This document shows positions 1,766 through 59,403 of a stretch of 59,405 nucleotides of DNA, one piece after another (the first letter of the stretch is position 1; every line of letters begins with the position of its first letter). Below the pieces are notes generated by a model. That model was not told where the DNA came from, searched no databases, and worked only from the letters and a program-made list of their open reading frames with translations. Position numbers and translations under genes: made by a program. Source of the stretch: a virus (taxonomy: Duplodnaviria; Caudoviricetes); IMG/VR virus record IMGVR_UViG_3300027881_000014, positions 1 to 59,405 of that record; one strand, given 5' to 3'.

Positions 1766-2467
1766 TTAAACTGGGTACCATGGTGTTACTTCAATCCAGG
1801 GTCTTGAACGCTCTAAGTGACGTTCTTCAACCTCATCTCTTTTACGTGTATATACTTGTAATACTCTACCATACTTCTGAGCTTTTAATCCTTCGAATTG
1901 TGCAAGACCAAGTTTTGCCATATATCTGACAGCTTGTCGCACGGTTTCTTCAAAGTACTTGTTTGGGAGCACAGGTATTGCTTGGAGGTTTCCCTCATCA
2001 TCAAGCTCTTCATAATCTTCTTCACCTGCGATAGATGATGTATAGTAGATCGTAATCTCATCATCAAGCTCAGGGAAAGTATAATAAAGCTCACGCTGAT
2101 TAGCATTAAAAAGTATATGGTAAAAATAATTAGTGGATGCGGTAGAACTATTGGCATTATCTAAAACCTTTTCTAAACTTACTTCTTCATATAATGTCTC
2201 AGTCCCACCATCAGGTGTAACTGTGATTCTCCAAGCGCCATTAAAATTTAAGGGCTCAATAACTATTGGTGATGTACCAGTATCATCATTGGTAATGGTT
2301 ACACTACGTTCCATAACTCCATAGAGTTTAGCTATAGCCCTCTCGGCTCTATATACTGCTTGGGAGTATATATTACGAGGGAAGTCCTTAAACCAAGGAT
2401 CTCCGCATTTAAGTGCTACCTCTCCGATAGCTTCATTATTACTTATGTTTACAATTTGTGTGGGCAT
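1766..2467 (-). CDS. Putative head-tail adaptor/tail ring protein
   Basis: 233 aa, with helical N- and C-termini around a beta-rich middle (LYYTFP...ITIYY...PVLPNKYFEETV) typical of podovirus adaptor/ring proteins. Lies directly upstream of the nozzle. Confidence 0.55.
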   Translation of the reverse strand: MPTQIVNISNNEAIGEVALKCGDPWFKDFPRNIYSQAVYRAERAIAKLYGVMERSVTITNDDTGTSPIVIEPLNFNGAWRITVTPDGGTETLYEEVSLEKVLDNANSSTASTNYFYHILFNANQRELYYTFPELDDEITIYYTSSIAGEEDYEELDDEGNLQAIPVLPNKYFEETVRQAVRYMAKLGLAQFEGLKAQKYGRVLQVYTRKRDEVEERHLERSRPWIEVTPWYPV

Positions 2468-3231
2468 TAGTCACCTACGGGTCTTAAATAGTTAAATTTT
2501 CCACCTATTATTCTAAGTAGACATTGTCTTGATGTTATAGGATCACCTATAGAACCGGTAGCAATACTAAATACTTTCATACCATCCCAACCCCATTGTA
2601 ATGGTGGAGATACAAAAGAAGCTTGTGTTTGTCCATTAATTTTTACAGGATCATTCCAAGAATAATCATATGTATAAAATGAGTCTATAACTACACCAAG
2701 TGAGTCATATAAATATCCAACTGTACTATCAACATTTACAGTACGTCTAAACCATTCATATGTTATAGTATTACCTGATACATTCCATTCAAATGTAACT
2801 GTAGAATCAATTTCCCCTATTAATTGTCGTGGTAAATTCCATTCTATGTAAGGTTCTTGATAGATATCATCTAACCAACCTACTTCACCCGTAATGACAA
2901 CCTTAGATTTTACATTTTCAGGTATAATCTGTGGAGCAAAATAGAGTTTGCTTCCTAGGCGTACATTAGCAAGCTCTGTCACCCAAGTTAATTGCTTTAA
3001 GCTATTATTCCAAGTATAACTGCCCATTGGTGCAAAGCTTAGATTTTCCCTACCATTGCCCATAATAAAACCAATATCATATTGTCCTGCACTAGGAGTT
3101 TCAACAAATGTTGCTCTACCCCATAATTCAAGAACATCAGCATTGGTATATTTAGCTGCAGCTGAGTCAAGTGAAACTTGAGGTAATGCTAATCCAGTAA
3201 GCAGCAAAAAACTTAATAGTATTTTCTTCAT
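2467..3231 (-). CDS. Secreted Ig-like domain protein in tail module
   Basis: Signal peptide MKKILLSFLLLTGLALP|Q. C-terminal half resembles an Ig fold (VTFEWNVSGNTITYEWFR...INGQTQASF...DG.KV..IAT). Confidence 0.6.
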   Translation of the reverse strand: MKKILLSFLLLTGLALPQVSLDSAAAKYTNADVLELWGRATFVETPSAGQYDIGFIMGNGRENLSFAPMGSYTWNNSLKQLTWVTELANVRLGSKLYFAPQIIPENVKSKVVITGEVGWLDDIYQEPYIEWNLPRQLIGEIDSTVTFEWNVSGNTITYEWFRRTVNVDSTVGYLYDSLGVVIDSFYTYDYSWNDPVKINGQTQASFVSPPLQWGWDGMKVFSIATGSIGDPITSRQCLLRIIGGKFNYLRPVGD

Positions 3232-5324
3232 TATTTATAGCCTCCTTTGGCTTTATATTGGTCATCTGCTTGTGTAGCATTAACTCCTGTTAAATCATTG
3301 TTAGTTGTTTCATCTCCTAAGAATAAAGCATTAGTATTCCCTTTCCACTTCCACCATCCAACAATAGTCCCACCTGTATAACTGCCAGTCATATTCTTGC
3401 CTTTAGTACCATTGTTATAATTAGTTAGTACATCACTATCACCAAATCCTGCATCTTCTATATTATCAAATCTTATAAATTGTAGCTCGCCTATTAAGCC
3501 ATTAAATTCACTCGCGTTGTTAAAAGCACCTATCTGTAACGGAGTTATTGAACTTCTTATTGTACCAATTTCAGTTATATCCCAACCATTCCCAGTTCTT
3601 GGGTATAAATCAAAATACATACTATCTGTTCTGTCAATAGACAGATAAAATAAATCCCATTGATTCAATACTGGGTCATTTGTACTTGATGGATTATAAG
3701 TAGTCCCATTTATAAAAGCTCGTAAATCGCCAGAGGCATAATAAAAATCCCACTGTGCGAGTTCACTAAGTGACCTATAAGAAAATAATCTATAAGTAGT
3801 TGCTACATTCGCAGGATTAAACCACCCTATTACAGCAAAATCATAAGCCTGACTCACATCCATATTGTCTATATATACTGTATCTGGTTGGTTGAGGTAC
3901 ATCTGTAAATCAGGTGTTGGGTTACCAGTAGTATCCCACTCAAAATTCCACACTAAGGTTTCAAATGCTGATGGGTCAACATCACTGAATGTTTTGCTAC
4001 TGTCTCCTACTACAAGTTCTAAGTCTGGGGGGGTTACTTGTTTGAGCGATACGTTATCAAACACTACCCCTGTAAGAGTGGCGTAGGGTCTTAGAAAAGT
4101 ACCAGCTGATTGAAATACGTGAGTATGAGTTCCATTGCTATAAAATGCAGTAGCTTGTCCAGCACTACCTTCATACCATCCCCCCTCTCCACCAACAAGA
4201 GTTAAATCAAAGGTAAGTTCATACCATAAATCTGCTGTCAGTATAGTTTGCTCAATAGTATTATTGCTATAAGCACCATCTTTTAGACTTTCAAATTCAC
4301 CACCTGTTCTATCCCAATAAGTAGTATCAGCACCTCCAACCCAAGCCCAACCTGTGTAGTCACTAAAGTCACCATTTGTAATTAACTCACTTCCCTTTAT
4401 TCCCTCACTATTAGCATCCATCTGCCAAGTATATTTCTTACCGTGTTCTAATGCTGTGAAATCAGCTGCTGGTAGTGAGGTGTAGTTGGTTGTTGCATCG
4501 CCCACTGGAGTTTTATATACAGAAACATCATCAAAATATAATATATCACCCTCTGCACCACCTTCTGTCCAAATTCCTATTAGTTTCCCCGAATTTGATT
4601 CGCAAACGTCGGTGAACGTAGCTTCAAACCACGAACCTTGGCCTTGCCCTGAATAATCTGCCGAATAACCAGTTATGCTGGTGCCATCATCATACATTAT
4701 CTGTACGGCTGTAAACGATTCTCCTGTTTCCAGATAAAGCTGTGCGGTTATCGTATAAGTTTCTCCTGGTATCATCTCTAATAGGTAGGCATCTAAAAGT
4801 CTCGCCGCAAGACGAGTTCCCACAACCGAACCAACAGTAATTTTACCAACTTTTTCTGCCCCTGGATTAGTACCATCATAAGTCACAGTACCATTTGAAC
4901 CACCACCAGTTAATACAACCCAATTACCGATATTACCACTTGAAAAATCTCTATCGTTTAGAGCAGCTATAGATTCAGTCGTATCACTAACAATCACCCC
5001 ACCATAACTACCACCATTGTTTGTAGATGAAGTATCTATAGTGTGGTTACCGTTGCCTGTCCAATTAGTTGTATCACCATCTTCAAAATCAGAATCTTTT
5101 CCGGAATCTGCAATACGTAAAGTATCATTTAAGTCTAAGTTTACTGGTGAACTGTTAGAAGCGTATTCATCTATGCCATTAAAGTCAATAGCCCATAGAT
5201 TTTTTTCTTGGCCACTATATATAGAACTACCAAATGTATGTATCCACCAATAATCACTTTCCCATGACTGTGCATTTGTAAGCCCAACTAAAAGTAGTGT
5301 GCTACATAATATTCTTTTAAACAT
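3231..5324 (-). CDS. Secreted carbohydrate-binding protein (CBM4/9-like repeats plus LamG/ConA-like domain)
   Basis: Signal peptide ...GLTNA|Q. Motifs DFEDGDTTNW, ELITNGDFS, YFDDVSV, FDNVSLK are CBM-like. DFNGIDEY...FAVIGWF...LQIGA...FNGLIGEL...VGWWKW is LamG-like. Confidence 0.65.
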   Translation of the reverse strand: MFKRILCSTLLLVGLTNAQSWESDYWWIHTFGSSIYSGQEKNLWAIDFNGIDEYASNSSPVNLDLNDTLRIADSGKDSDFEDGDTTNWTGNGNHTIDTSSTNNGGSYGGVIVSDTTESIAALNDRDFSSGNIGNWVVLTGGGSNGTVTYDGTNPGAEKVGKITVGSVVGTRLAARLLDAYLLEMIPGETYTITAQLYLETGESFTAVQIMYDDGTSITGYSADYSGQGQGSWFEATFTDVCESNSGKLIGIWTEGGAEGDILYFDDVSVYKTPVGDATTNYTSLPAADFTALEHGKKYTWQMDANSEGIKGSELITNGDFSDYTGWAWVGGADTTYWDRTGGEFESLKDGAYSNNTIEQTILTADLWYELTFDLTLVGGEGGWYEGSAGQATAFYSNGTHTHVFQSAGTFLRPYATLTGVVFDNVSLKQVTPPDLELVVGDSSKTFSDVDPSAFETLVWNFEWDTTGNPTPDLQMYLNQPDTVYIDNMDVSQAYDFAVIGWFNPANVATTYRLFSYRSLSELAQWDFYYASGDLRAFINGTTYNPSSTNDPVLNQWDLFYLSIDRTDSMYFDLYPRTGNGWDITEIGTIRSSITPLQIGAFNNASEFNGLIGELQFIRFDNIEDAGFGDSDVLTNYNNGTKGKNMTGSYTGGTIVGWWKWKGNTNALFLGDETTNNDLTGVNATQADDQYKAKGGYK

Positions 5325-5335
5325 AGGTGCTCCTA

Positions 5336-5770
5336 TTAGATATATCTACATTCTAGAACAAAGACTTTATCTGCAGCTTCTGCTGTTATGTCTCCTAATT
5401 TTAACCATACATAATCATTATTATTACTACCTGATTCACCTAGGATTGGCATAATAGTATTAGCATTAAGCGGTGCTATAGATGAATCCGCAATAGAAAC
5501 TGTATAATCAGTTGCTTCTCCAAGCTCTAAGATAGTCAGCCAGGTAGTGGGTGACCTATCATATGAAATCTTAATTGTAAAACTAGTTGCATTAGTAATA
5601 TCTAATGTATGTACTGCGACAGGTACCATACCACCTGGTATTCTTATAGAATCCGTAGATGTTTGGCCAGTTGTTAAAGTTAAAGTATATGAATTTGGTT
5701 CAGGTTGTGCATATGTCATGCCTATCATTAAACCTAATCCCAATAATAAACTAAAAAGTAATCGTTTCAT
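5336..5770 (-). CDS. Small secreted beta-sandwich protein
   Basis: Signal peptide ...IGMTYA|Q; 144 aa, beta-strand pattern. Confidence 0.55.
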   Translation of the reverse strand: MKRLLFSLLLGLGLMIGMTYAQPEPNSYTLTLTTGQTSTDSIRIPGGMVPVAVHTLDITNATSFTIKISYDRSPTTWLTILELGEATDYTVSIADSSIAPLNANTIMPILGESGSNNNDYVWLKLGDITAEAADKVFVLECRYI

Positions 5771-5775
5771 TTTGT

Positions 5776-7887
5776 TTAATCCTTGTTAATTTTCGGATGT
5801 ATCCCTCTAAAATAATTACGAGTCATTGTAAAGCTGAGGGTAGTGCTATACACGTCTTCTGCTAAGTTATTATTATCAGGAGCAGGCTCCCATGATGTTA
5901 CATAGTACATGCTCTGTTGTCTACCTTCGTCTCCTACCATTATCTTGGCTATGAAACCTAAACTATCGGCATAATCTTTCATGGTGGTTAAATCTGAAGT
6001 AACATAATAGCTATTACCTACGTTACTATCTGCTCTTGCGATGACTACATCTATTGGAAAATGTAATATAGCCAATCTATGATCAGCTTGATCTTGTGAC
6101 ATAGAAACAGTAGTAGTGCCTGTTCTATCTGTATAATTCATTATTGTGTCATATACAGCCGTATTAGTTGCTCTACCCATGACATAAAAATTTGTACCAT
6201 CTGTCAAGAATGAGTACCACCAACCATTATATAATAATGAATCATTATGAGCACTAGTTGCATCTGCTCTTGTTATTACTAAAGAATCATCTCCGGCTGA
6301 ATTAAGTATAACAATTTGATATTGTGATTGTATAGGATATTGTATCGTCTCTGTCGTAACACATTGTCGTCTATCAAATGTTAATGTATTAAATTGATTG
6401 CTATATGCTATAGTCCAACTATTGGTATCAGTTATTGCAATCTCATGCCAATATAATCTATGTGTTACATTAGACCATCCGCATGATGGATCATAATAAC
6501 TAAATGCATTTACAATACCATCAGAAGGACTTAAATCAACCGTACCAGATGCACAGTCAGATACTAAATAACTTCCTGTTACATTCATACAGAATAGACT
6601 ACCTAATTTGTTTAGTCCTTCACCTTCATTAACTAAATCTTGAGTTGATGAGGTATCTCTGCTTTCCTCTGCTTTAATCCAGAATGTAGGACCACCTGTA
6701 ATCGTAGTAGACCCAATACTCCAAACATAAAGAGTGCTATCCCAGAGAGCACTATTAACAGTGTCGACCACATTGTTAAGTTCAATAGTATGCCAAATAA
6801 GACTATCATTACTCCAAAATAAATCGAATGAAGTGACGTACTGCGAGCGGACCGAAATTGAATCGACTCCTCCGGATTCGGTAAAAGTTGTTGTTTCGGG
6901 TGAGACATCATAAACCTCTATATCAGAAAATGGATTAATAGTAAAATCATTAGCACTTGAATCAGCCCAATAAGTAGGACTATCGCCGAGCACCCTAATC
7001 TTTCCCGTTGTGATCTGATGTCGTGGGACCGTCCAAGAGACGCTAGTATCAGCCACGGCAACAGTATCAAAATCGCTCCAATCTGTCCCGCTATTTGTGC
7101 TAAATGCCAAATACGTGTTATCAATTGCTGTATCACTTGGTGCCGTCCAATGTATTGTTATTACTGAATCTTCTCTAAAAACTAAACCAGCTGCATCTGG
7201 ATAATTTAGTATGATATTATCCCACTGATTAATGGGATTATATTGGATCCACAGACTATCAGCTCCAGTAGGTGTTCCAGCTGTTGCATTAAATGCTCCA
7301 GCAAATGTTCCTACTTTCCATTGTATAGCACCATAATCCCAGTATTGTGTAGTGCCTAATTGCATCCAATCACCACTATTCCAATAATAAAATTTAATAC
7401 TATCTGTACTGCTACTATATGTTACTCTAAAATAATCTTTAGCATCTACTGCTAAACCTGTATCAAATAGGTATTTAAATTCACCATCTACAGTAGAATC
7501 TCGTACCATTAAAGAAACTTTAGTTAATTGGTATACATTACATATGCCAATGCCAAGATATTCATTAGTACTACTCCATATACCAAGCATAGGACTTAGA
7601 TTACCAAAATCAGTATCTTTCCACAGATAACCTCTTACATCAAAATCAGAATTAGTCGTTGATAATGAATCAGCATAGTATTGATAATAGCCATAATTTA
7701 CTTGTAATGTAGCACCAGTAGCCTGTAAATAACCATCTGTAATAATATCTGTAGTATCCCATTCTACTCCTGCATTTTGATGAGTCCAACCTGCGCTATA
7801 TCCAGCTGTAAATTCTTCTGTTAGAGTAATTTGAGCAAGTAATGAACTAGTGGCTAATGTTAATAATATTAATAATTTTTTTACCAT
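5776..7887 (-). CDS. Secreted multidomain protein (lectin-like N-terminus plus Kre9/GPI-anchored-type Ig-like domain)
   Basis: Signal peptide ...SSLLA|Q. Segment LNYPD...ITIHW...LAFSTNSGTDW...SVSWTVP...GKIRV...DSSANDFTI matches the Ser/Thr-rich Ig-like module common in secreted FCB proteins (recognised by eye). Confidence 0.6.
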   Translation of the reverse strand: MVKKLLILLTLATSSLLAQITLTEEFTAGYSAGWTHQNAGVEWDTTDIITDGYLQATGATLQVNYGYYQYYADSLSTTNSDFDVRGYLWKDTDFGNLSPMLGIWSSTNEYLGIGICNVYQLTKVSLMVRDSTVDGEFKYLFDTGLAVDAKDYFRVTYSSSTDSIKFYYWNSGDWMQLGTTQYWDYGAIQWKVGTFAGAFNATAGTPTGADSLWIQYNPINQWDNIILNYPDAAGLVFREDSVITIHWTAPSDTAIDNTYLAFSTNSGTDWSDFDTVAVADTSVSWTVPRHQITTGKIRVLGDSPTYWADSSANDFTINPFSDIEVYDVSPETTTFTESGGVDSISVRSQYVTSFDLFWSNDSLIWHTIELNNVVDTVNSALWDSTLYVWSIGSTTITGGPTFWIKAEESRDTSSTQDLVNEGEGLNKLGSLFCMNVTGSYLVSDCASGTVDLSPSDGIVNAFSYYDPSCGWSNVTHRLYWHEIAITDTNSWTIAYSNQFNTLTFDRRQCVTTETIQYPIQSQYQIVILNSAGDDSLVITRADATSAHNDSLLYNGWWYSFLTDGTNFYVMGRATNTAVYDTIMNYTDRTGTTTVSMSQDQADHRLAILHFPIDVVIARADSNVGNSYYVTSDLTTMKDYADSLGFIAKIMVGDEGRQQSMYYVTSWEPAPDNNNLAEDVYSTTLSFTMTRNYFRGIHPKINKD

Positions 7888-9233
7888 AGTCGTCTAACTG
7901 TTATATTACCTGTTAATACAGTTATATCATTGCTATTAACATCATTCATAGCTCGTAGTGATATCCAATCGTCAGCAGTTGCATATACAATACATGTTCC
8001 TGCCACAACACCAGCATCAGTACCAGACATACCTCTTTCAGTTTGTCCATACTCTTGCTTAACATTTTCTAAAAAGATAGCCGTATACCAAACATCAGTA
8101 TTGGCACCTATAAAGCTTAATGAATAATCAATTTTATAATAACCCGCTGTTTCACATTGGATAGAATCTCCATCGAACACTAAATCTCCTGTATCAAATG
8201 CATCATTCCATAAACTATTGGTAGTATTGGTAATAGGAGACCATACATTAACTGCAGCAGCTATGACTTCAGCAGAATCAGCAAAATATTGCCCTCCCCA
8301 AACTAAGCGTATACTATCTTTTACAGCTTGGGCTAAGTTAATCCATGTTTGATTTTGCATACTATCTCTTACCGTTGAGTTGAGGTTCCACCATGTGATA
8401 AGGCTGTCATTACGGAGACCACCGTCGTCTGTACTAATAAGTAAAAACTCGCTACTATCACCAGCAGCACCGCTACCAGAATAGTAAGGCTTATTTGTAG
8501 CGCTCCAAAACACACGCGAAACACCCGTGTCATTATTACCATCAGGAATTCTAAGAGATCCTGTAACATTATTATCTCCACTAAATGTATTATCACCTGA
8601 TAATGTATTGTCTTCAGCTAAGTAAACTGTTAATGTAGTATCAGGTCTATCATGATCTAATAATGAGTTAATACTTGCTGTTCGTAGTTTAAGGGTATCA
8701 TTTTCTATATACAAATATGTTGAATCTGTGTATACAATGAGTTCCCATAGTTTAAGATCTATAGAATCTTGGTTCAATGATATTCTAGTATAAAAACTAG
8801 TTAAATTAGATTGAGTCCATTTCCATAAATCATAATGAGTTGTTAATCCATCTGGAGGTGTAAGAGATGTAACTCCGCCTCCACTTCCTCCTGTACCAAA
8901 TCCACCCCATTTGATCTTGCCTTCTGCTACATAATGATTATTGATACTATCTATCATAGATAAACCTTCATTATATACAGAGTCCCAATCAGCTACTTGA
9001 AGAGAATCACTTAACAACCAGAATACATAGGGATTATCAGATGTAGCTAATGCTTTAACATCGTTTAATATAGCGTTAAGGTGTTTAAAGTAGGGTCTCT
9101 TATTGTTCAAACCTCCGGCTAGGTACCTTACATTAGTAGGATACTTGCCAAAAAATTGAGCAGTAGTTTCTGTAGGAAGAGCAAAGAGTATAAGGGCAGC
9201 AAATATTGCGTACTTAAGTTTCTTTAGTATCAT
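7881..9233 (-). CDS. Secreted fibre-like protein with C-terminal C1q/TNF-like domain
   Basis: Signal peptide ...PTETTA|Q; fibre-like repeat DNTLSGDNTFSGDNNVTG; C-terminus (IQCETAGYYKIDYSLSF...IVYATADDWISL...NITVRRL) resembles C1q/BclA-type trimeric tips. Confidence 0.6.
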   Translation of the reverse strand: MILKKLKYAIFAALILFALPTETTAQFFGKYPTNVRYLAGGLNNKRPYFKHLNAILNDVKALATSDNPYVFWLLSDSLQVADWDSVYNEGLSMIDSINNHYVAEGKIKWGGFGTGGSGGGVTSLTPPDGLTTHYDLWKWTQSNLTSFYTRISLNQDSIDLKLWELIVYTDSTYLYIENDTLKLRTASINSLLDHDRPDTTLTVYLAEDNTLSGDNTFSGDNNVTGSLRIPDGNNDTGVSRVFWSATNKPYYSGSGAAGDSSEFLLISTDDGGLRNDSLITWWNLNSTVRDSMQNQTWINLAQAVKDSIRLVWGGQYFADSAEVIAAAVNVWSPITNTTNSLWNDAFDTGDLVFDGDSIQCETAGYYKIDYSLSFIGANTDVWYTAIFLENVKQEYGQTERGMSGTDAGVVAGTCIVYATADDWISLRAMNDVNSNDITVLTGNITVRRLW

Positions 9234-10910: not shown

Positions 10911-12266
10911 TTATGAAGTTGCATTCAAGAATACCCAGTGAGCCTGGGGGTTAGTTCTCTTAAATGTAACTTGTCCGTAAATCTCAGATTCCATTTCATG
11001 AGGGTTAACCTGTGGAACAGTGATAGTTTTAATATCCATGTTCTGAAGGTGACCATACTGGAAGTGAGCCGGATCAATTATATAAGCGTAATCAGACATT
11101 CCGTGTAGCGAAAGTGTATCTGAAGGCGCAATAAGCAGAGTACCACCATTAGAAGCATTAAACTTGACTAGTTCAACACCCCAGCTATTTACAGCTGCTG
11201 GTAGTATGATCTTATTATCGATCATATTACTAAATTTAGTATACCAATCTGCTCCTGTGAGTCCAACTTTGACCTGTGCTCCATAATAGAACATGTCTTT
11301 AAGTTGCTCGTTAAAGTTTTTAGTCTGAAATAGTGAATCATCGTAATTCACATGGTTTGCAGCGGGAATAAATTCTGCTATTCCACCAGCGTACCATTTC
11401 CTGCGACCGTTTTCTGTAGCTGTTCCTCTCGAACCGAACAAGCCCATGACGTCCATCTCATTGAAGAACTCTTCAAGTGCTCTACGACCATTCCTCTGGA
11501 ATGTTTTCTCTGCTGTAAAGAAGCGATTTACGTTCTGTTCAGTTTCAGTTGCAGACCATTTTCTCATTACTATTTGACAATAGTTATAATCAAATTCGTC
11601 AACGTCACTGTACGTCAGCTGATCGTCTCTACCTTCAGGGATGCTGTTTCCAGCTTTCCATAAGAAAGGCGCGGTTATTGGAGAAGCCCAAGTTCCACCA
11701 GCAATATCTACTGCCATATCCGCATGACCTGTGGGCTCAACGCCCCCAAAGTTTCTGCGAACTGTAACTGCAGTAGCTGTACTGGATGCTGAACCTGCTA
11801 AATTACCCGAACCGTCACCGCCATTACTAATGACTTGGACTTGCTCTGGTAATGGGAATGAGCTAGTTTTAAGATTCATATCCTCACCAGTGGCATTAGG
11901 TAATGCTCTGGAAGAACTGACAAAGAATCCCATAAGATTTAGTACGTCACCTGCTTGTAATCTACGTCCTTCAGCGTTAAGAACATGAATTATATCATTC
12001 TTATCGCCTGAAGTAGATGTAGAATCAGATGAACCAAAAATACGTGCTAAACGTGCATATTCCAGACCCCATCTTGTCTCGACGTCTGCAGCTACGAAAG
12101 CACCATTGCTCTTAGCATAGTTCAATAATAGACGCATTAAATTCGCACGTCCCTCACCAATCTTGGTAAGCATCGCGGTACGTCTATCATATATTCGAAA
12201 ACTCGAAGGAATCTGATCAACTACCGGTTGCGCGGCATAATATGTTAAATTATAATCGTTGGCCAT
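10911..12266 (-). CDS. Major capsid protein (HK97 fold, SU10/DUF5309-like)
   Basis: 451 aa after portal and scaffold; motifs NYCQI...SATE, EMD...LFG, RKWYAGGI, IYGQVTF.R.NP.AH. Confidence 0.8.
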   Translation of the reverse strand: MANDYNLTYYAAQPVVDQIPSSFRIYDRRTAMLTKIGEGRANLMRLLLNYAKSNGAFVAADVETRWGLEYARLARIFGSSDSTSTSGDKNDIIHVLNAEGRRLQAGDVLNLMGFFVSSSRALPNATGEDMNLKTSSFPLPEQVQVISNGGDGSGNLAGSASSTATAVTVRRNFGGVEPTGHADMAVDIAGGTWASPITAPFLWKAGNSIPEGRDDQLTYSDVDEFDYNYCQIVMRKWSATETEQNVNRFFTAEKTFQRNGRRALEEFFNEMDVMGLFGSRGTATENGRRKWYAGGIAEFIPAANHVNYDDSLFQTKNFNEQLKDMFYYGAQVKVGLTGADWYTKFSNMIDNKIILPAAVNSWGVELVKFNASNGGTLLIAPSDTLSLHGMSDYAYIIDPAHFQYGHLQNMDIKTITVPQVNPHEMESEIYGQVTFKRTNPQAHWVFLNATS

Positions 12267-15942: not shown

Positions 15943-16623
15943 CTAAGTAATCCTGACTGACGCCGTTCTCTTTGTCGCCAATGCGGGATGAATTTCGGGA
16001 AGCTGAGAGACTTGCGCCTCTCGCTTTAAAATCTTGAACTCCGGAACCTTAGCTACGCTTGCTATTAGTTCTTTCCATGTTGCTTCCGTTAATTTTACCG
16101 TCACATTAATCAGGTCGTCATTAACCTGTTCTATGTCAACGATCTCTCGTCTCTCGCTTATATAAGGATGGAACGAGTATATATGACCACGAAGGGGAGA
16201 ACCCTCGCTCAAGCTATGCAATCTCTGTTTCAGCCGCGCGATGTTTCTCTGTATTCTGCCAGAGACACCAGAAATTCTCGCTGTGGCTTCCCGTTTGAGT
16301 TCTTTAATCTTGTCAAGCTCAGCCTCTAATTCGGTCATGACGTATCCGTATGCGTCGACTTTATCTTTGATAGCTAGTTCTTGATTCTGCCATATTAGAT
16401 CTTGATCGTTAGTAATTTCTCCGTCTTGATCTTCTATATCTGCTTGGAGACATAAATGATCATACAATAGCTCAGCTAACGTAATGGGATTACTCTTGCT
16501 CGTGAGTGAACCCGACTGGATTGCGCTTGACTTCAAGGGTCTGCTCGCCTCCAGGTTTGCTCCAGGCGTATTTGTCTGCGCCTTTTCCGTTTGCTTTGCC
16601 GATGAATTCGAATTGTGTTTCAT
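15943..16623 (-). CDS. Siphovirus Gp157-like protein (true start probably downstream of the ORF start)
   Basis: TLAELL...DGEIT...IKDKVDAYGYVM.ELEA....IK...RLKQRL pattern and C-terminal SVRI. Confidence 0.6.
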   Translation of the reverse strand: MKHNSNSSAKQTEKAQTNTPGANLEASRPLKSSAIQSGSLTSKSNPITLAELLYDHLCLQADIEDQDGEITNDQDLIWQNQELAIKDKVDAYGYVMTELEAELDKIKELKREATARISGVSGRIQRNIARLKQRLHSLSEGSPLRGHIYSFHPYISERREIVDIEQVNDDLINVTVKLTEATWKELIASVAKVPEFKILKREAQVSQLPEIHPALATKRTASVRIT

Positions 16624-18550
16624 CAGTTTCTTTCTTGTTTAAGAGTATCTTAGTAAAGACATCTGCGCCGGTCGCGTTTGATGCTTCTAGTAATACTTCT
16701 GGAACTGCTGTTTTATTAGCAGCTAAATAAGCGGAAATCTCGAAGCCTCGAGCCCGTCGCTTTTCATCCAGATTATAATAGTAGGTTTTACCATTCTTCT
16801 CAGAAACAGTAACCTTCAGATTAGGAACCTCTTTAGAATCCCATACAGGTGCATTCTCTTTATCCCACGTGCTGTGAGAGACTTCCTCTTTGAAAGGAAG
16901 TTCTGGTTCCTTACTAGGTGGTGATGAGTCAACTCCTTTTGCAAGGCAATTGCCACACAATTCAGGTAGTCGATCTGTTGTTTGAATATCAAATATCTTA
17001 TCTTTCTTACAATTCTGGCATATATAGTGAGTTTCCACTGTATATCCAGATTTAATTAAGTCACGAGTTGTTTCAAACATCTCTGCTTCTCTTTCAGGTG
17101 GAAGAGGTAGAGGATGTAATACAATGAACTTCTTAGCTTTAATGGCTTCTGCTTTCTTTTTCTTCCAATCTCCATAAAAGCCTTGTTTTTTATCAGTTGT
17201 GAGCTCTTTAGCTTTTTCCTTAGAAATTCTCACTAACCTAGCATTAGTTGGTTCTGGACCAAGCAATGTTTTACCACGCTTAATATCACCATATTCCTTA
17301 CACTTAATCCATTGTTTACTCGTCATAAATCCTTGGACATTGTACGGCATTCCGAATCCAATGTTCTTCAGTTCAGTAACCAGTTCACTTACCTCGGCAA
17401 TTGAAAACCACTTTGACATGGCTAACTTCCATTTTGACTGTTGAACTAAATCAATAACTTTATGAATATTGAAATGGTTCTTCAAGACTAGTGGTAAAAC
17501 TGGCGAGACTTTTAGTTTTGTTACATCATGATATAATTTTCCAATATCTCTATCTCGATTAAATAAGAGCTTACCTTCAGGTGTAACTTCTGATACTGAT
17601 CTGTTTTCTCGCAGAAAGTCTCCATAATCTGTATATGGCCATTGTTCTTCCTGAGGCATAATTATATGCTCTTCAGAACCTTTATGTCCATCTTCAATTA
17701 CTTCAAATTCTGCATTAATAATATTTCCATTTCCATAGGACTCGTCTAATTTCTCATTGAGTCTTCTGGGGCCAATGTAAGGAGAATTAATCTCCCTGTC
17801 TTCTTTCCTATAATCCCATGAATTATAATTCACAGCTTCAGCAAAGCGTTGATAACCTGCTTCATGTGGCATTCTAACATATTGATATTCTTTAAAGAAA
17901 TCAACAAATTTACGTAATTGGCTTCTCAATTCATTCACAGATGCATATGCATTTTCTGAATGATTATTATGATAACCTACTCCGAAGTTAATACCACTAC
18001 ACCCGAGATGTTCTAAATCTCTTATGCAACTATAGCCACCCCAAGAAGTTTCAAAATTATATTTCCCGAGCTTATATCTAAGCTGTTCTGTGCTATATTG
18101 GTATGTTACTGCGCCCGTTCCCTTACGATCGAACATGAACATCCAATTATACTTCTTTGGTGGGTCAAACCATAATGCTGTGGATTTACCCTTTTCTTCG
18201 TCATCTGTTAATAAGATGTCAAATTTAAGTTTACATTTAGTTAGATAGTCTAAACCTACATGTAGGCCAAGTCTATCATCATGGGTTGGTGAAAAGATCC
18301 AAGTATCTGACTTGAACTTTACTGGTTGGAAGACACCATTTGGCTGTACCGTGTCTGTATGACCGACGAATAGAACTTTTGCTCCATTGTCTCGGTACCA
18401 AAATCGTTTTCCTTCTTTGGTTTTATATTCCGTAAGACCATACTTAGCAGCTATTACTGTAGGTTTCATCCTAGCCATAGCTTTCATTTCTCCGTAATGG
18501 AGATTTGGCATGTTCTTCTTCGGATTATTTCTTATTACTGGCTTTTTCAT
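16490..18550 (-). CDS. M28/M20-family zinc peptidase-like domain fused to an RNAP alpha-CTD-like domain and a Zn ribbon
   Basis: HTDTV, DDRLG, DEEKG, FDRKG, GVGYHNNHS metal-binding motifs; aa ~339-401 resemble alpha-CTD; CQNC...CGNC. Confidence 0.65.
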   Translation of the reverse strand: MKKPVIRNNPKKNMPNLHYGEMKAMARMKPTVIAAKYGLTEYKTKEGKRFWYRDNGAKVLFVGHTDTVQPNGVFQPVKFKSDTWIFSPTHDDRLGLHVGLDYLTKCKLKFDILLTDDEEKGKSTALWFDPPKKYNWMFMFDRKGTGAVTYQYSTEQLRYKLGKYNFETSWGGYSCIRDLEHLGCSGINFGVGYHNNHSENAYASVNELRSQLRKFVDFFKEYQYVRMPHEAGYQRFAEAVNYNSWDYRKEDREINSPYIGPRRLNEKLDESYGNGNIINAEFEVIEDGHKGSEEHIIMPQEEQWPYTDYGDFLRENRSVSEVTPEGKLLFNRDRDIGKLYHDVTKLKVSPVLPLVLKNHFNIHKVIDLVQQSKWKLAMSKWFSIAEVSELVTELKNIGFGMPYNVQGFMTSKQWIKCKEYGDIKRGKTLLGPEPTNARLVRISKEKAKELTTDKKQGFYGDWKKKKAEAIKAKKFIVLHPLPLPPEREAEMFETTRDLIKSGYTVETHYICQNCKKDKIFDIQTTDRLPELCGNCLAKGVDSSPPSKEPELPFKEEVSHSTWDKENAPVWDSKEVPNLKVTVSEKNGKTYYYNLDEKRRARGFEISAYLAANKTAVPEVLLEASNATGADVFTKILLNKKETDETQFEFIGKANGKGADKYAWSKPGGEQTLEVKRNPVGFTHEQE

Positions 18551-41281: not shown

Positions 41282-41949
41282 TAATCTGTTAATCCTTTTA
41301 GACTTTCGACTATGCCATATAATATAGCTATCCCGAGAATTGTACCACTAGCTACTACGGCAGGTTTTTCTATGAATGGTATGTCACGTTCTACGAATAC
41401 GGAGTCGGTTCTCCAGAATGTATCTACTTGAGCTATTTCCATTGCCCTAGGCGTTAGGTTAAACTCAATAGGTAATTCTATTTTTAATGTATCATTTTCT
41501 ACATAGGGGTAAGCTGTTGCTCTTATAATACCAACTACAGATTTAGTATCCACATGTACTACATTTTCTACATATTCAGGGTAGTAAACTACCTCTATTT
41601 CAGGTAATGTAGCGGTGTATACTGTGAAATCAGTTGTACTATCTCTCCCAACAATAGCAGGGAGGCTGAAAATGCTTGTATCAGGTACCCCAGGAATATA
41701 CGTCTCTGTACGTGAGGATCTGTAAGGCTCTGGTTTGGATACCAAAGGACTAGGGATAAGGTACAAACCCACGCCAACCAAAAGACCCACAATAATAAGG
41801 GTCCAATTGATGCCAGTATTGTTTGTTCCATTAGGTTGCCCACTTCCAGTGGAGTCTGTTGAGCCAGCCTCTGAGGTATTTTTTGTTGTTTTGAATGCGG
41901 ATAACAAGTTTCCTAAACCGAGTTTCAAAACGCTTAATATAGTTTTCAT
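41281..41949 (-). CDS. Putative spanin-like lysis protein
   Basis: Downstream of and overlapping the endolysin; N-proximal TM, beta-rich middle with DT/DS motifs, C-terminal hydrophobic helix. Confidence 0.5.
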   Translation of the reverse strand: MKTILSVLKLGLGNLLSAFKTTKNTSEAGSTDSTGSGQPNGTNNTGINWTLIIVGLLVGVGLYLIPSPLVSKPEPYRSSRTETYIPGVPDTSIFSLPAIVGRDSTTDFTVYTATLPEIEVVYYPEYVENVVHVDTKSVVGIIRATAYPYVENDTLKIELPIEFNLTPRAMEIAQVDTFWRTDSVFVERDIPFIEKPAVVASGTILGIAILYGIVESLKGLTD

Positions 41950-42355
41950 ATAATACTTCTGGGTTAATGTTGTTTACTGCAGCAAGGCTAATTGGCCCAA
42001 AATTAGAATCAACCCTGACCAAATACCCGCTAGCTTTAACAGCCTTTTGCAATATTTTGACTGCGCGTCCCCTACCATTGAGGATGCCCATATCAAACAG
42101 CTTGAAGCCCAAAGCATTGCTACGTATATAATCATAATGTCGATTCCAGTATTGGTCACGATAAATCTCTACTGCATTATTATAAGTTAGCGATTTTATA
42201 TTGAGGTGTGGGTGTGCTCTTTTAGAGATTCCCCACTTAGTCTCACCACCTCGATCGTCAGGGTCGTTAGTGTATCCCCCTGACTTATCGCCTCCTGTTT
42301 CGAAAAAGATTGATTGGCTTACGAAGAGTTTGAATCTCACTGAGTTTGACTCCAC
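41831..42355 (-). CDS. Endolysin, glycoside hydrolase family 108 with peptidoglycan-binding domain
   Basis: E...GGYTNDPDDRGGETKWGIS, IYRDQYW, LFDMG.LNG, VDSNFGP.S, YLRGWLNR. GTG start at 42355 with AAGGA SD preferred over 42523. Confidence 0.85.
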   Translation of the reverse strand: MESNSVRFKLFVSQSIFFETGGDKSGGYTNDPDDRGGETKWGISKRAHPHLNIKSLTYNNAVEIYRDQYWNRHYDYIRSNALGFKLFDMGILNGRGRAVKILQKAVKASGYLVRVDSNFGPISLAAVNNINPEVLYENYIKRFETRFRKLVIRIQNNKKYLRGWLNRLHWKWAT

Positions 42356-42587
42356 GTTTGTCCAATCCTTTTTTGACTCCTTTTCGGATTTTGTCTCCGA
42401 AACCGATTCCTGTCCAAGTATAGATGAGGATACGACCTGTTTCGACGTACCACTCATCATAGCCTTGGAGAATCTTTCCGTCCATAGTGACAAGAACCAT
42501 CCCAATAAGGGACTTATTCCCATCTAGTAGACTCCATATTTTATTTAGATGCGTCAGTATCCTCAATAGCAGGTTCACTTGGTGCAT
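42285..42587 (-). CDS. Putative holin
   Basis: WSLLDGNKSLIG motif, hydrophobic segments, basic tail; directly upstream of the endolysin. Confidence 0.45.
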   Translation of the reverse strand: MHQVNLLLRILTHLNKIWSLLDGNKSLIGMVLVTMDGKILQGYDEWYVETGRILIYTWTGIGFGDKIRKGVKKGLDKRGVKLSEIQTLRKPINLFRNRRR

Positions 42588-42930
42588 CTTTCTTTAGAAA
42601 ATATAGGTTAATTAACATAAAGATGTCGAGTGCTACCTTAAAAGAATCTTCTATAAAAGTTTCTAATTGGTCATCTTCGAGATCCAAATTATCTCTAAGA
42701 TATTGCTTTAATTCTTCAATCTCAGCAGGATCAGCTACCTTAAATTCGAACGGTACTTGTTCAGCACCTTCAAGTGCAGGCATGATCAATGTTAAGAATG
42801 GAATAAAATTAGGAATATCTAGTAAATTCAATTGACCATCAGACAATGAACTTTCGATACCTTTTCCTAAAGCAATCATCGCATCTAGTATTTGTTTGGT
42901 TTCTTTAAAACCAACTTGTACTGGATCCAT
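42541..42930 (-). CDS. Hypothetical protein in lysis module
   Basis: 129 aa with SD GGAG. Confidence 0.55.
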   Translation of the reverse strand: MDPVQVGFKETKQILDAMIALGKGIESSLSDGQLNLLDIPNFIPFLTLIMPALEGAEQVPFEFKVADPAEIEELKQYLRDNLDLEDDQLETFIEDSFKVALDIFMLINLYFLKKDAPSEPAIEDTDASK

Positions 42931-42941
42931 TTAATTCTCCA

Positions 42942-43202
42942 TTATTTATTTATATTTTGCTGTAATAGCGTCTCTAATATACTAATTTTTTCGACGGTTT
43001 GCAAGTGTAATTTATTTTGATGATCCTTGACATCTTCAAACCTATCAAGATAATTGAGTCTAATCTCAATCAACTCACGTTTCATTAGCTCTATATCCTG
43101 ATCCATACGTTTAATACGCCAGAATAATAGTGCAACAAAAGCATTTGCAAGAATACCTAAACAACTTGTAAGTACGCCTAATATAATTACTGTTGGGTCC
43201 AT
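42942..43202 (-). CDS. Single-TM coiled-coil protein (holin/antiholin-like)
   Basis: N-terminal TM plus coiled coil at the start of the lysis module. Confidence 0.5.
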   Translation of the reverse strand: MDPTVIILGVLTSCLGILANAFVALLFWRIKRMDQDIELMKRELIEIRLNYLDRFEDVKDHQNKLHLQTVEKISILETLLQQNINK

Positions 43203-57720: not shown

Positions 57721-58412
57721 TACGGAAACCTTACATTAGGTAGAAAATCTAAATTACTAAAATCACTTCCAGTTCCACCTGCATTAGAAAATCTTTGTCC
57801 CTGTTGCCTTAAGAATGGGTTAAAATTACCAGCATTTTCAATGGGTACTAAACCTCCAGCACCAGATCTATTAGGTCCTGCTGTACCAGTACCTGCGCCT
57901 GCTCCACCTGGGGGAGTATCAGGTAGGCCTCCTACTGGGCGATCACCTAAGAACTTAGCTCCTTCATTTACCAATGGCAATGCAGCAGCAGCACCCTCTA
58001 CAAAAGATCCAACTGGATCAGCACCAGTGCCTAGTCCTTGTAATTCTATACCAGCTATTTGGCTACGTATTTGAGTATTAATTGTTTGGGCTTGACCTAT
58101 TGCATTTTCTTGTGCACTAAGCCTAGCACCTTCGACATTACCAGCTACAGCTGCACCCACAGTGCCTCTGTTAGCTAATCCTCTGCTTCTAATAGCAGTA
58201 GTATTTAGCGTAGATGTTAAGCGCTGGTTAAATGATCTGTCAATAGAATTAAGTCTATCTGCTAAATCATCTTGACTAATAAGTCCCTGTGCTGCTAATG
58301 CTTTAGCTCTTTTAATAGCTTCTTGCACTGCATCAGATTGAGCCTTATTAGAAAATATACTGGCGATGCCTGATCCAATAGCAATTCCTCCTGCTATGAG
58401 TGGTAGTGGCAT
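57720..58412 (-). CDS. Putative DNA pilot/ejection protein
   Basis: MPLPLIAGGIAIGSGIASIF N-terminus; Gly/Ala-rich; SRGL..G motif. Confidence 0.6.
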   Translation of the reverse strand: MPLPLIAGGIAIGSGIASIFSNKAQSDAVQEAIKRAKALAAQGLISQDDLADRLNSIDRSFNQRLTSTLNTTAIRSRGLANRGTVGAAVAGNVEGARLSAQENAIGQAQTINTQIRSQIAGIELQGLGTGADPVGSFVEGAAAALPLVNEGAKFLGDRPVGGLPDTPPGGAGAGTGTAGPNRSGAGGLVPIENAGNFNPFLRQQGQRFSNAGGTGSDFSNLDFLPNVRFP

Positions 58413-58828
58413 TAATTATATCTCCTTCTTTTTAAAAGACTAAAATCAACTTCTAGTCTGTAAATCTTTGTTGTCTTTGCTGTAGCGGTAGCTACAATCT
58501 GTATTTTAGTATGAGCTTTGCGCTTTACTAATGGAAAATCTATATCTACTGTAGTCCTTATGGCTGATGTAGGGAAAGACATAGTATGTATGAATGTACC
58601 ATCATAATAAAATGATAAATCAAATGCTCCTATGTAGTCTGCATCAGCAAAATTAATAAGTTTTTCTAATGTTGGTTGTCCTAAATCTGAATCATTAAAA
58701 GTTACAGCCGCGCCTATAAGCTCGGTATCTGTAGCATCATATGTCCATACCTTTGTATCTTCTAAATAAGCTATTTCACCATTCAGATCAATTAGTACAT
58801 CATTAGCTGTTGATAATATTGTTGCCAT
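58412..58828 (-). CDS. Putative tail-associated structural protein
   Basis: 138-aa beta protein coupled to the nozzle 3' end (DSDLGQPTLEK...). Confidence 0.45.
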   Translation of the reverse strand: MATILSTANDVLIDLNGEIAYLEDTKVWTYDATDTELIGAAVTFNDSDLGQPTLEKLINFADADYIGAFDLSFYYDGTFIHTMSFPTSAIRTTVDIDFPLVKRKAHTKIQIVATATAKTTKIYRLEVDFSLLKRRRYN

Positions 58829-59403
58829 TATTCTACAGCCTCAATTCCTTTTTCTGTATTAATTTCCTCAATAGTGATTGTCTTATTAATTCTCTCCCAG
58901 ACACCTTCCTTAATACGAAACCGATAAAGATCTTCTGAGGAGGTCGGCTTATAATAGATTTCATGTTTATACCTATTGTAATATATACGTCCTGTAGTAT
59001 AGTTTGCTATAACTATATCATCAATGGGTACAGAAACAGATTCTGATTTGTATCCATTAGTCATATAAATACCATGTTGTGAATGAACACAAACTCCACC
59101 TTGTATATTAGCTACATCATTCTTATCTTTAACACCTAGCTCAACTGTATCCTCAAACCTAAAGCCTATGATACCTGCTACTTCTTCAGCATGTATGACA
59201 TATGATGTATTATCTGTAAACGCCATTAGTCTACCATCGGCATTGGCAACTGCTGTTAAGCCAGTCACACCTGTTACAGGCAAACGGTTGTCATCATATA
59301 TAAGATCAGGCATGAGGTTACCACCTCCAAAAGTGCTATGATAAATAGCAACTTCATCTTTAGATGAGATGCCTATACTTATCCCACTCTCTGTTACAAA
59401 ATC
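58828..59403 (-). CDS. C-terminal part of the tail nozzle protein (continuation of 1-1764)
   Basis: Frame is open to the window end (DFVTESGISIGISSKDEVAIYHSTFGGGNLMPDL...); beta-propeller-like pattern. Confidence 0.7.
   Translation of the reverse strand, partial: DFVTESGISIGISSKDEVAIYHSTFGGGNLMPDLIYDDNRLPVTGVTGLTAVANADGRLMAFTDNTSYVIHAEEVAGIIGFRFEDTVELGVKDKNDVANIQGGVCVHSQHGIYMTNGYKSESVSVPIDDIVIANYTTGRIYYNRYKHEIYYKPTSSEDLYRFRIKEGVWERINKTITIEEINTEKGIEAVE

Follow-up and report, generated by a model that had tools for sequence, protein, structure and literature searches.

Organisation of the structural operon

The DNA analysed here (the window) is the entire IMG/VR virus record IMGVR_UViG_3300027881_000014, which is linear, 59,405 bp long and rated 100% by CheckV. 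It represents the whole genome (59 kb) of an SU10-like podovirus that has not been cultured. In this study, we describe a cassette of five consecutive genes in its structural operon, SP5 to SP1 in the order of transcription, whose products carry putative Sec leaders ending before a Gln and lie where tail fibres would be expected. The operon runs on the minus strand in the order portal, a gene in the scaffold position, major capsid protein (MCP), two small proteins, head-to-tail adaptor, the five-gene cassette, a gene for a protein of 233 amino acids (aa) and a gene in the nozzle position; past the contig ends follow further proteins, a protein of 4349 aa and a lysis cassette. Coordinates are listed in Table 1.

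The portal protein is P22-like (Pfam, E value 1.7e-33) and the MCP belongs to the SU10 family (Pfam, 4.6e-20). For the adaptor, the Pfam SU10_adaptor match lay below the cut-off (7.9e-5); its AlphaFold2 model (predicted local distance difference test score 79.9) gave full-length Foldseek matches (probability 1.00, template modelling (TM) score 0.53-0.60) to the adaptors of cyanophage A4, Pa223, crAss001, SU10 and KHP30. Nothing useful was found with the adaptor profile among Protein Data Bank (PDB) sequences, and the adaptor as a single query had no match in IMG/VR.

The cassette spans positions 2467-9233 and encodes 2248 aa in total. The adaptor and SP5 genes overlap by 20 nucleotides (nt), SP5 and SP4 by 7 nt, SP2 and SP1 by 1 nt, and SP1 and the next gene by 1 nt; SP4 and SP3 are separated by 5 nt, and SP3 and SP2 by 11 nt, the largest gap in the cassette. 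No promoter or terminator of its own was seen in these gaps. Promoter-like sites, defined by the sigma-70 consensus, were not above the shuffles (37 versus 43.7). The first-pass annotation, made from the sequence alone, had placed the cassette between two adaptor or ring genes. The upstream one is indeed an adaptor; the downstream 233-aa protein has no similarity to it and gave no notable match among PDB sequences.

Leaders followed by glutamine

A leader was called where Lys or Arg occurred in the first 8 residues together with a 10-residue stretch of Kyte-Doolittle mean at least 2.0 and an [AGSP]Q pair at about residues 13-35. Of the 68 open reading frames (ORFs) of at least 50 aa in the window, five were flagged, exactly SP1-SP5, and none of the other 63. 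All five leaders have a positive n-region, a hydrophobic h-region, a short c-region and Gln at +1, with cleavage (slash) predicted at the sites given by the first-pass annotation: LALP/Q in SP1, LTNA/Q in SP2, and MTYA/Q, SLLA/Q and ETTA/Q in the others. Ala stands at -1 in four of the five.

A search with SP5 yielded 54 proteins, including the window's own, at 35-100% identity, and the leader with its Gln was kept in all 54 (-1 residue A in 34, G in 17 and S in 3). It was likewise kept in 3/3 homologs of SP4 and 8/8 of SP2, so the signature proposed for the window recurs in related phages. For the majority of signal-peptidase-I substrates in Bacteroidetes, cleavage exposes a Gln that is then cyclised (PMC5837995), a preference referred to below as the Q-rule. 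Here and below, PMC5837995, PMC12871550, PMC10367356, PMC9509320 and PMC4823517 are cited from excerpts of their text. Judged by the leaders and their conservation, SP1-SP5 are very likely exported.

Two other export routes were considered and rejected. Cargo of the type IX secretion system would carry a Por_Secre_tail or TIGR04183 domain, and neither was found in any of the five (Pfam and NCBIfam, E up to 0.1). Lipoproteins would have Cys at or near the predicted cleavage site, where none occurs; the sole leader Cys is residue 7 of SP2, before the h-region.

Enrichment of the O-glycosylation sequon

The motif D-S/T-A/L/V/I/M/T (the sequon, D-[ST]-[AILVMT]), used by the general O-glycosylation system of Bacteroidota, is glycosylated on non-cytoplasmic proteins only, at near-full occupancy; it is enriched over chance in the substrates, and engineered motifs become glycosylated (PMC12871550). 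Counts in the window were compared with composition-preserving shuffles, 5000 per test. The cassette as a whole held 40 sequons against 14.0 expected (standard deviation 3.5, z 7.4), a number that 0/5000 shuffles reached. The individual counts for SP1 to SP5, 4, 7, 1, 16 and 12, agreed exactly with those of the first-pass annotation. SP5 (12 versus 2.8) and SP4 (16 versus 5.4) were each reached by 0/5000 shuffles, and SP1 had 4 versus 0.8 (p 0.006), so that each of these three has 3 to 5 times as many as expected by chance. The enrichment that had been proposed for the cassette therefore stood for the pooled set and for SP5, SP4 and SP1; it did not extend to SP2 and SP3.

Only the exact motif is in excess. 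In the same five proteins, D[ST] followed by any other residue gave z -0.83, E[ST]h 0.91, N[ST]h 0.66 and the reversed motif -1.07. It is also confined to the cassette: 0/14 other window proteins were enriched, the smallest p being 0.17 for the MCP (3 versus 1.4). A background of about 3 sequons each had been claimed for MCP, portal and large terminase; this was right for MCP and portal (3 each), and the 686-aa ORF in the terminase position has 1. The 4349-aa protein has 8 versus 12.7, the nozzle-position protein 0 versus 3.0, and the 233-aa protein 0.

When the window was pooled with nine related loci, the 17 ORFs with a leader held 162 sequons against 45.8 expected (3.5x), and the 116 other ORFs 107 against 114.8 (0.93x). 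The 53 SP5 homologs together had 522 versus 133. In an alignment of 40 SP5 sequences, D76-S-L, D84-S-V, D95-S-I and D179-T-L were present in 40/40, and further positions in 37, 33, 26 and 20 of the 40. The leader and sequon signature is conserved and is therefore under selection. From these counts, SP5, SP4 and SP1 are likely to be glycosylated.

SP5 has a conserved anchor and an exchangeable tip

SP5 consists of a conserved anchor and a fast-changing tip. Over the same seven genomes, the mean pairwise identity was 0.73 for the MCP, 0.62 for the portal, 0.49 for the adaptor, 0.53 for residues 1-180 of mature SP5 and 0.27 for the rest of SP5. The C1q/TNF-like tip foreseen by the first-pass annotation was confirmed by the fold search, in which the tip matched the TNF/C1q/BclA-C jelly roll (Z 14-17, root-mean-square deviation about 2 Å), including the cyanophage A4 fibre (Z 15.6), the A-1(L) short fibre (14.9) and the phi812 spike knob (15.5).

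Relatives with the same leader and anchor carry other tips. A Beta_helix domain was found in P0078 (Pfam, 3e-8) and L030 (8e-24), with a further match in P0079 under the Pfam cut-off (1.7e-4); other relatives have a BppL_N motif (P0027) or a BclA_C domain. An anchor with an exchangeable tip is the pattern of phage receptor-binding proteins.

Wherever both genes were seen, an SP5 homolog followed the adaptor (L004, L008, L010, L013, L017, L018, L021, L023, L026 and L172), a count biased by the retrieval of all these contigs except L172 through SP5 itself. In L017 and L018 the SP5 homolog is the sole gene between the adaptor and the 233-aa gene; the slot holds two leader genes in L026 and five in the window.

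The other proteins of the cassette

SP4 has a conserved C-terminal motif (FRGIHPK) and a variable middle. Its three database homologs have 16-17 sequons versus 4.1-5.5 expected, and homologs also lie behind SP5 in L004 (873 aa, 22 versus 4.1) and L026 (842 aa, 17 versus 4.8). An Atlas search with SP4 returned only scores below 0.9 with TM below 0.35, and as a single query in IMG/VR it had no match. For SP3 a single homolog was found, a 147-aa protein of L030 (31% identity) with leader and Gln, encoded just upstream of the 233-aa gene. No family was found for SP1, SP3 or SP4 in Pfam, PHROGs or NCBIfam.

For SP2, a carbohydrate-binding module with a LamG domain had been proposed. In the window protein itself CBM_4_9 stayed sub-threshold (E 0.0055); in the homologs Pfam CBM_4_9 and Laminin_G_3 are above the cut-off, together with Toxin_R_bind_N. 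These homologs share a conserved C-terminal end and show no sequon excess. An Ig-like domain also proposed for the cassette was not borne out, a sub-threshold Fn3 match (E 0.081) being all that appeared.

Leaderless homologs as a natural control

A profile built from residues 1-180 of mature SP5 was run against 1.84 billion representatives and gave 45 matches. Of these, 34 cover the domain from its first position; in 32 of them a leader precedes it and it starts at residue 19-29, and in P0092 and P0089 it starts at residue 3 and no leader precedes it. The leaderless P0092 (1221 aa) has 1 sequon versus 6.6 expected. The same domain thus appears to occur with and without a leader, its mature N-terminus equally placed, and the sequon load to track the leader, a comparison that involves one full-length leaderless protein.

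The C-terminal module of P0092, about 110 residues (~1105-1221), recurs in 170 viral and 58 genome stretches (57 loci) assigned to Clostridia, Leptospiraceae, Bacteroidales, Saccharibacteria, Treponema and others. The module thus looks very widely shared and is probably a phage fibre tip or a chaperone.

Comparison with known systems

In SU10, the long fibres are encoded after the adaptor gp11 and dock on it (PMC9509320). In the annotation of SU10 (KM044272), portal gp6 and MCP gp9 precede adaptor gp11; next come the fibres (gp12 and gp13), the short fibre (gp16), the nozzle (gp17) and the needle (gp18), followed by ejection proteins and one large protein. The window resembles this Kuravirus of Escherichia in MCP family, adaptor fold and structural gene order, and the position of SP5 is that of gp12. 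The fibres of SU10 are presumably made without a leader. Its host is proteobacterial, and to our knowledge neither the Q-rule nor this glycosylation motif applies there. The identification of SP5 as a tail fibre is supported by the synteny with SU10, the conserved anchor with swapped tips, and the fold.

The closest parallel for the leaders is offered by the Cellulophaga phages phi18:3 and phi46:3 (the pair KC821620/KC821622; cultured podoviruses of the Pachyviridae), which belong to a different virus family and infect a Flavobacteriia host. Like the window, they have runs of three and five consecutive large proteins with leader and Gln. In GenBank, gp085-087 of phi18:3 (L179:4501-10193) are recorded as 'structural protein' with experimental evidence from tandem mass spectrometry (MS/MS), and only these 3 of the 23 features in the stretch are so marked; all three have a leader and Gln (GYS/Q, VSA/Q and LNA/Q). 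In phi46:3, gp079-083 (L178:6344-14946) have them in 5/5, and four are annotated as structural by similarity. Relatives of these leader genes are annotated as pectate lyase, i.e. tailspike-like. No remark on the leaders of either phage was found in the searchable literature. Exposure to glycosylation seems to have led to sequon enrichment in one lineage and avoidance in another, with leaderless proteins at chance.

Several other systems are alike in part. The SP5 tip fold also matches Bdellovibrio bacteriovorus Bd2439 and Bd2734 (PDB 8onf, 8ol4 and 8okw). These we take to be bacterial, phage-fibre-like trimers shown outside the cytoplasm, cellular adhesins rather than virus parts. The coat proteins of filamentous phages assemble at the membrane. 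Virion coat proteins of Inoviridae (pIII, pVIII) use the host Sec system (PMC4823517); these phages differ from the window phage in that they are not tailed, the whole particle is extruded through the envelope, and no lysis is needed. Known O-glycosylation substrates are cellular proteins, and the review on them (PMC12871550) does not contain the word 'phage'. In Porphyromonas gingivalis prophages, Q-rule genes have been read as an adaptation to host secretion that provides surface modifiers (Matrishin et al. 2023, PMC10367356). That set differs from the cassette: it comprises five genes of unknown function from temperate siphovirus-type prophages, and the excerpt connects them with neither tail fibres nor glycosylation.

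Searches of a literature collection holding few of the subscription papers turned up none that reports Sec-exported or host-glycosylated fibres in tailed phages. New here are the occurrence in an SU10-like lineage, the invariant sequon sites, the leaderless sequon-poor homolog, the anchor measured against the adaptor and the sequon contrast with the Cellulophaga phages.

Candidate hosts of the lineage

The Q-rule and the motif point to a host in Bacteroidota, broadly understood. Among 185,579 species genomes, no relative was retrieved by the SP5 profile, and the endolysin gave two uninformative matches. Shine-Dalgarno-like 4-mers precede 48% of the window ORFs and 33-73% of those in relatives (L004, L008, L013, L023, L026 and L172), over a background of 10%. 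Among controls, the frequency was 2% and 13% in Flavobacteriia phages, 0-9% in three Flavobacteriales loci, 42% in a Melioribacteraceae locus, 71-74% in SU10 and a Geobacillus phage, and 31% and 85% in two Bacteroidales-binned loci. Because of the last two values, the frequency argues only against a Flavobacteriales-like host. The host need not belong to the classical Bacteroidia or Flavobacteriia. Bochtler et al. give a Q-value of 77% for Ignavibacterium album (PMC5837995), and Q-rule lineages of this type are therefore candidates.

Proposed assembly and alternative explanations

The best reading of these results, to which we would give somewhat better than an even chance, is that the five exported proteins are virion fibres that join the particle at lysis. 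A receptor-binding module of five proteins would be made as Sec/signal-peptidase-I precursors and cross the inner membrane; the leaders would be cut, the exposed Gln cyclised to pyroglutamate, and the sequons of SP5, SP4 and SP1 glycosylated by the periplasmic machinery of the host. SP5 would be the core fibre, docking on the adaptor ring through its mature N-terminal ~180 residues and presenting an exchangeable C-terminal tip. SP4, SP2, SP3 and SP1 would be accessory binding parts, which would share its compartment because they would assemble with it, and leaders on all five fit a complex that assembles in one compartment. The particles of tailed phages are held to fold and assemble in the cytoplasm. 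If heads and tails are built there, exported fibres would therefore join only at or after the breach of the inner membrane, once holin and endolysin have opened it or in the lysate. The host-recognition gear of this phage probably matures outside the cytoplasm, unlike the rest of the particle.

Put in its fullest form, as two-compartment assembly, the proposal comes a little short of an even chance. The whole branched apparatus, SP5 and up to four partners, would be exported, capped with pyroglutamate, coated with O-glycans and assembled in the periplasm, and fibreless, non-infectious particles would wait in the cytoplasm until the holin opens the membrane and the two meet. Sequon density would be tunable, raised here to provide a glycan coat or to help folding and purged in phi18:3 and phi46:3, and the trait would extend to Q-rule lineages outside classical Bacteroidia.

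A number of points weigh against exported fibres that join at lysis. For this phage genes alone have been read, and the presence of SP1-SP5 in the virion is deduced from them; we also infer the joining step, whose sole experimental prop is the MS/MS note for phi18:3, and the structural status of those proteins is known from that GenBank note. The leaders were called with a heuristic of our own and not with SignalP. SP2 (7 sequons versus 4.1, p 0.11) and SP3 (1 versus 0.8, p 0.58) are at chance, and SP1 combines an atypical Pro at -1, which makes it the weakest case, with the lack of any relative in IMG/VR or the related loci. Accessory leader genes vary in number among relatives (1, 2 or 5), as morons do. 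Extra ORFs with leader and Gln also occur upstream of the adaptor, at L017:1562-2185 (207 aa) and L010:9021-9311 (96 aa); they lie between a 114-aa-type gene and the adaptor, so the structural operon has received exported genes at two or more sites. No similarity between the SP5 anchor and SU10 gp12 could be detected (hhalign probability 0.4%), and the fold lists for SP5 were filled by tip matches that barely cover its N-terminal part. The proteins of phi18:3 and phi46:3 lack detectable sequence similarity to SP5 and, unlike the window's, are sequon-poor (phi46:3, 3 versus 15.6; phi18:3, 1, 1 and 1 versus 3.6, 3.1 and 2.9). The Shine-Dalgarno frequency of the window (48%) is far from the 2-13% of the Flavobacteriia phages. 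We know of no tailed phage that adds Sec-exported parts. Finally, a single paper on Q-rule proteins of phages was found, and in its excerpted text they are interpreted as modifying the host surface (PMC10367356).

The last point leads to an explanation that we consider unlikely, namely that the cassette encodes exported periplasmic or surface factors that stay off the virion, acting in receptor masking, in superinfection exclusion by fibre-derived decoys or as free lectins or glycanases with the envelope or polysaccharide as target, or carried as moron or auxiliary metabolic gene cargo. The host would then be bound by the leaderless 233-aa and nozzle-position proteins. The first-pass annotation had seen no cytoplasmic fibre gene elsewhere in the genome; the conserved leaderless 233-aa gene in the short-fibre position of SU10 leaves that claim unsettled and speaks for this explanation, as do the lectin-like SP2, the varying number and place of the accessory leader genes, the reading of the P. 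gingivalis proteins as exported non-virion factors, and the signal peptides on 5% of 64,678 prophage carbohydrate-active enzymes (PMC13507307). It accounts poorly for SP5, which no relative seen lacks and which lies immediately behind the adaptor, overlapping it in the window; its N-terminal region is conserved like the adaptor, which a decoy would not need, and the same anchor carries tailspike-type beta-helices. The 2248 aa of late-operon coding would be much for accessory cargo in a 59-kb lytic-type genome, the cassette shows no promoters or terminators of its own, and leader-bearing proteins of phi18:3 are recorded as structural.

A division of the cassette, with SP5 and probably SP4 as exported virion fibres and SP3, SP2 and SP1 as exported helpers or cargo off the particle (e.g. 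periplasmic chaperones, lectins or envelope-acting proteins), appears decidedly unlikely. Tail-fibre operons often hold non-structural assembly factors, only SP5 is universal, with SP4 next commonest, SP2 and SP3 have no sequon enrichment and SP1 is an orphan. Set against this are the single leader type and tight coupling of all five genes; the conserved C-terminal end and lectin domains of SP2 would equally fit a binding part, and no functional evidence here divides the two groups. Very improbable, in our view, is that the N-terminal segments are not Sec signals at all, being membrane or assembly helices or propeptides for a phage protease, with the proteins cytoplasmic and the sequon excess a motif of the fold. 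For structural proteins of phages, SignalP-type predictions may be wrong, as stated for capsid proteins (PMC10367356). The SP5 family, however, shows the n-h-c layout with A, G or S at -1 and Gln at +1 in 54/54; the excess leaves four neighbouring motifs flat, is common to the unrelated folds of SP1, SP4 and SP5 and is missing from the 116 leaderless ORFs of the clade; and the leaderless P0092, which starts at the mature N-terminus, does not have it.

Fibre-slot proteins made as Sec precursors and tuned to periplasmic glycosylation would, if the reading as exported fibres is true, constitute a new assembly route for tailed phages and an instance in which phage adsorption organelles bear glycans made by the host. 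Such fibres may be misfolded when expressed in the cytoplasm of E. coli, or misjudged when predicted with the leader on. Host-range prediction and engineering for Bacteroidota phages would have to weigh export and glycosylation, and the timing of lysis would itself belong to morphogenesis. With phi18:3 and phi46:3 in culture, the question can be tested directly.

Neighbouring genes and other features

Table 1 Positions of the cassette genes, their parts and neighbouring features in the window
Feature	Length	Position	Strand	Basis or remark
Head-to-tail adaptor	233 aa	9214..9915	-	presumed docking ring for SP5
SP5, putative core fibre	450 aa	7881-9233	-	leader, sequons, tip fold, slot after adaptor
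SP5 leader	residues 1-25	9159-9233	-	Gln26
SP5 conserved anchor region	~residues 26-205	8619-9158	-	identity among relatives
SP5 TNF/C1q-like tip	residues 306-450	7884-8318	-	fold match
SP4, putative second, variable fibre-module protein	703 aa	5776-7887	-	leader, sequons, homologs
SP4 leader	residues 1-18	7834-7887	-	Gln19
SP3, small putative exported protein	144 aa	5336-5770	-	leader; one homolog
SP3 leader	residues 1-21	5708-5770	-	Gln22
SP2, lectin-like (CBM_4_9 + concanavalin/LamG-type)	697 aa	3231-5324	-	leader; Pfam in homologs
SP2 leader	residues 1-18	5271-5324	-	Gln19
SP1, orphan putative exported protein	254 aa	2467-3231	-	leader with Pro at -1
SP1 leader	residues 1-17	3181-3231	-	Pro at -1, Gln18
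Leaderless 233-aa protein	233 aa	1766..2467	-	position of SU10 gp16 (short tail fibre)
Nozzle-position protein, N-terminal part	588 aa	1..1764	-	ORF runs off contig start
4349-aa ORF	4349 aa	43211-56260	-	slot of SU10 large protein after ejection proteins
Small membrane ORF	86 aa	42942-43202	-	flanks endolysin; hydrophobic N-terminus
Endolysin (GH108 + PG_binding_3)		41831..42523	-	Pfam 5.6e-16 and 6.5e-12
Small membrane ORF	82 aa	41595-41843	-	flanks endolysin; hydrophobic N-terminus

None of MCP, SP5 and portal had a tblastn match in 50,697 phage records, and DnaB had distant matches only (at most 27%); 10 proteins of the module were without a PHROGs family. No Pfam match at E up to 0.01 was obtained for the 686-aa ORF in the terminase position (16490-18550, minus strand). 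A GC-rich hairpin at 10934-10948, terminator-like on both strands, lies within the 3' end of the capsid gene and is possibly an attenuator after that gene; the annotated terminator of SU10 stands one gene later, after gp10.

The 233-aa protein is 55-63% identical in L017, L018, L026 and L030. The nozzle-position gene is one ORF of 884 aa in L026 (L026:14269-16923) and three in the window (588+, 161 and 138 aa), with the contig break inside; the ORFs at 58828-59313 (161 aa) and 58412-58828 (138 aa) match C-terminal parts of the L026 ORF (tblastn). When the contig ends are joined, the first nozzle ORF stops 3 codons on, and the 161-aa and 138-aa ORFs do not share a frame. The split may reflect gene fission, a frameshift or an artefact of end assembly. 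In the Atlas, the 884-aa protein of L026 has as neighbours viral proteins of ~900 aa that belong to no family; BLASTP gave no match between it and SU10 gp17, and the nozzle-position protein found nothing useful among PDB sequences.

The 4349-aa ORF matched no Pfam family. Directly after this giant gene, at 41595-43202 on the minus strand, lies a likely candidate for the lysis cassette, consisting of the 86-aa ORF, a 129-aa ORF, the endolysin and the 82-aa ORF. In the Cellulophaga phages, a PG_binding_3-type hydrolase is encoded a few genes after the leader-bearing structural genes.

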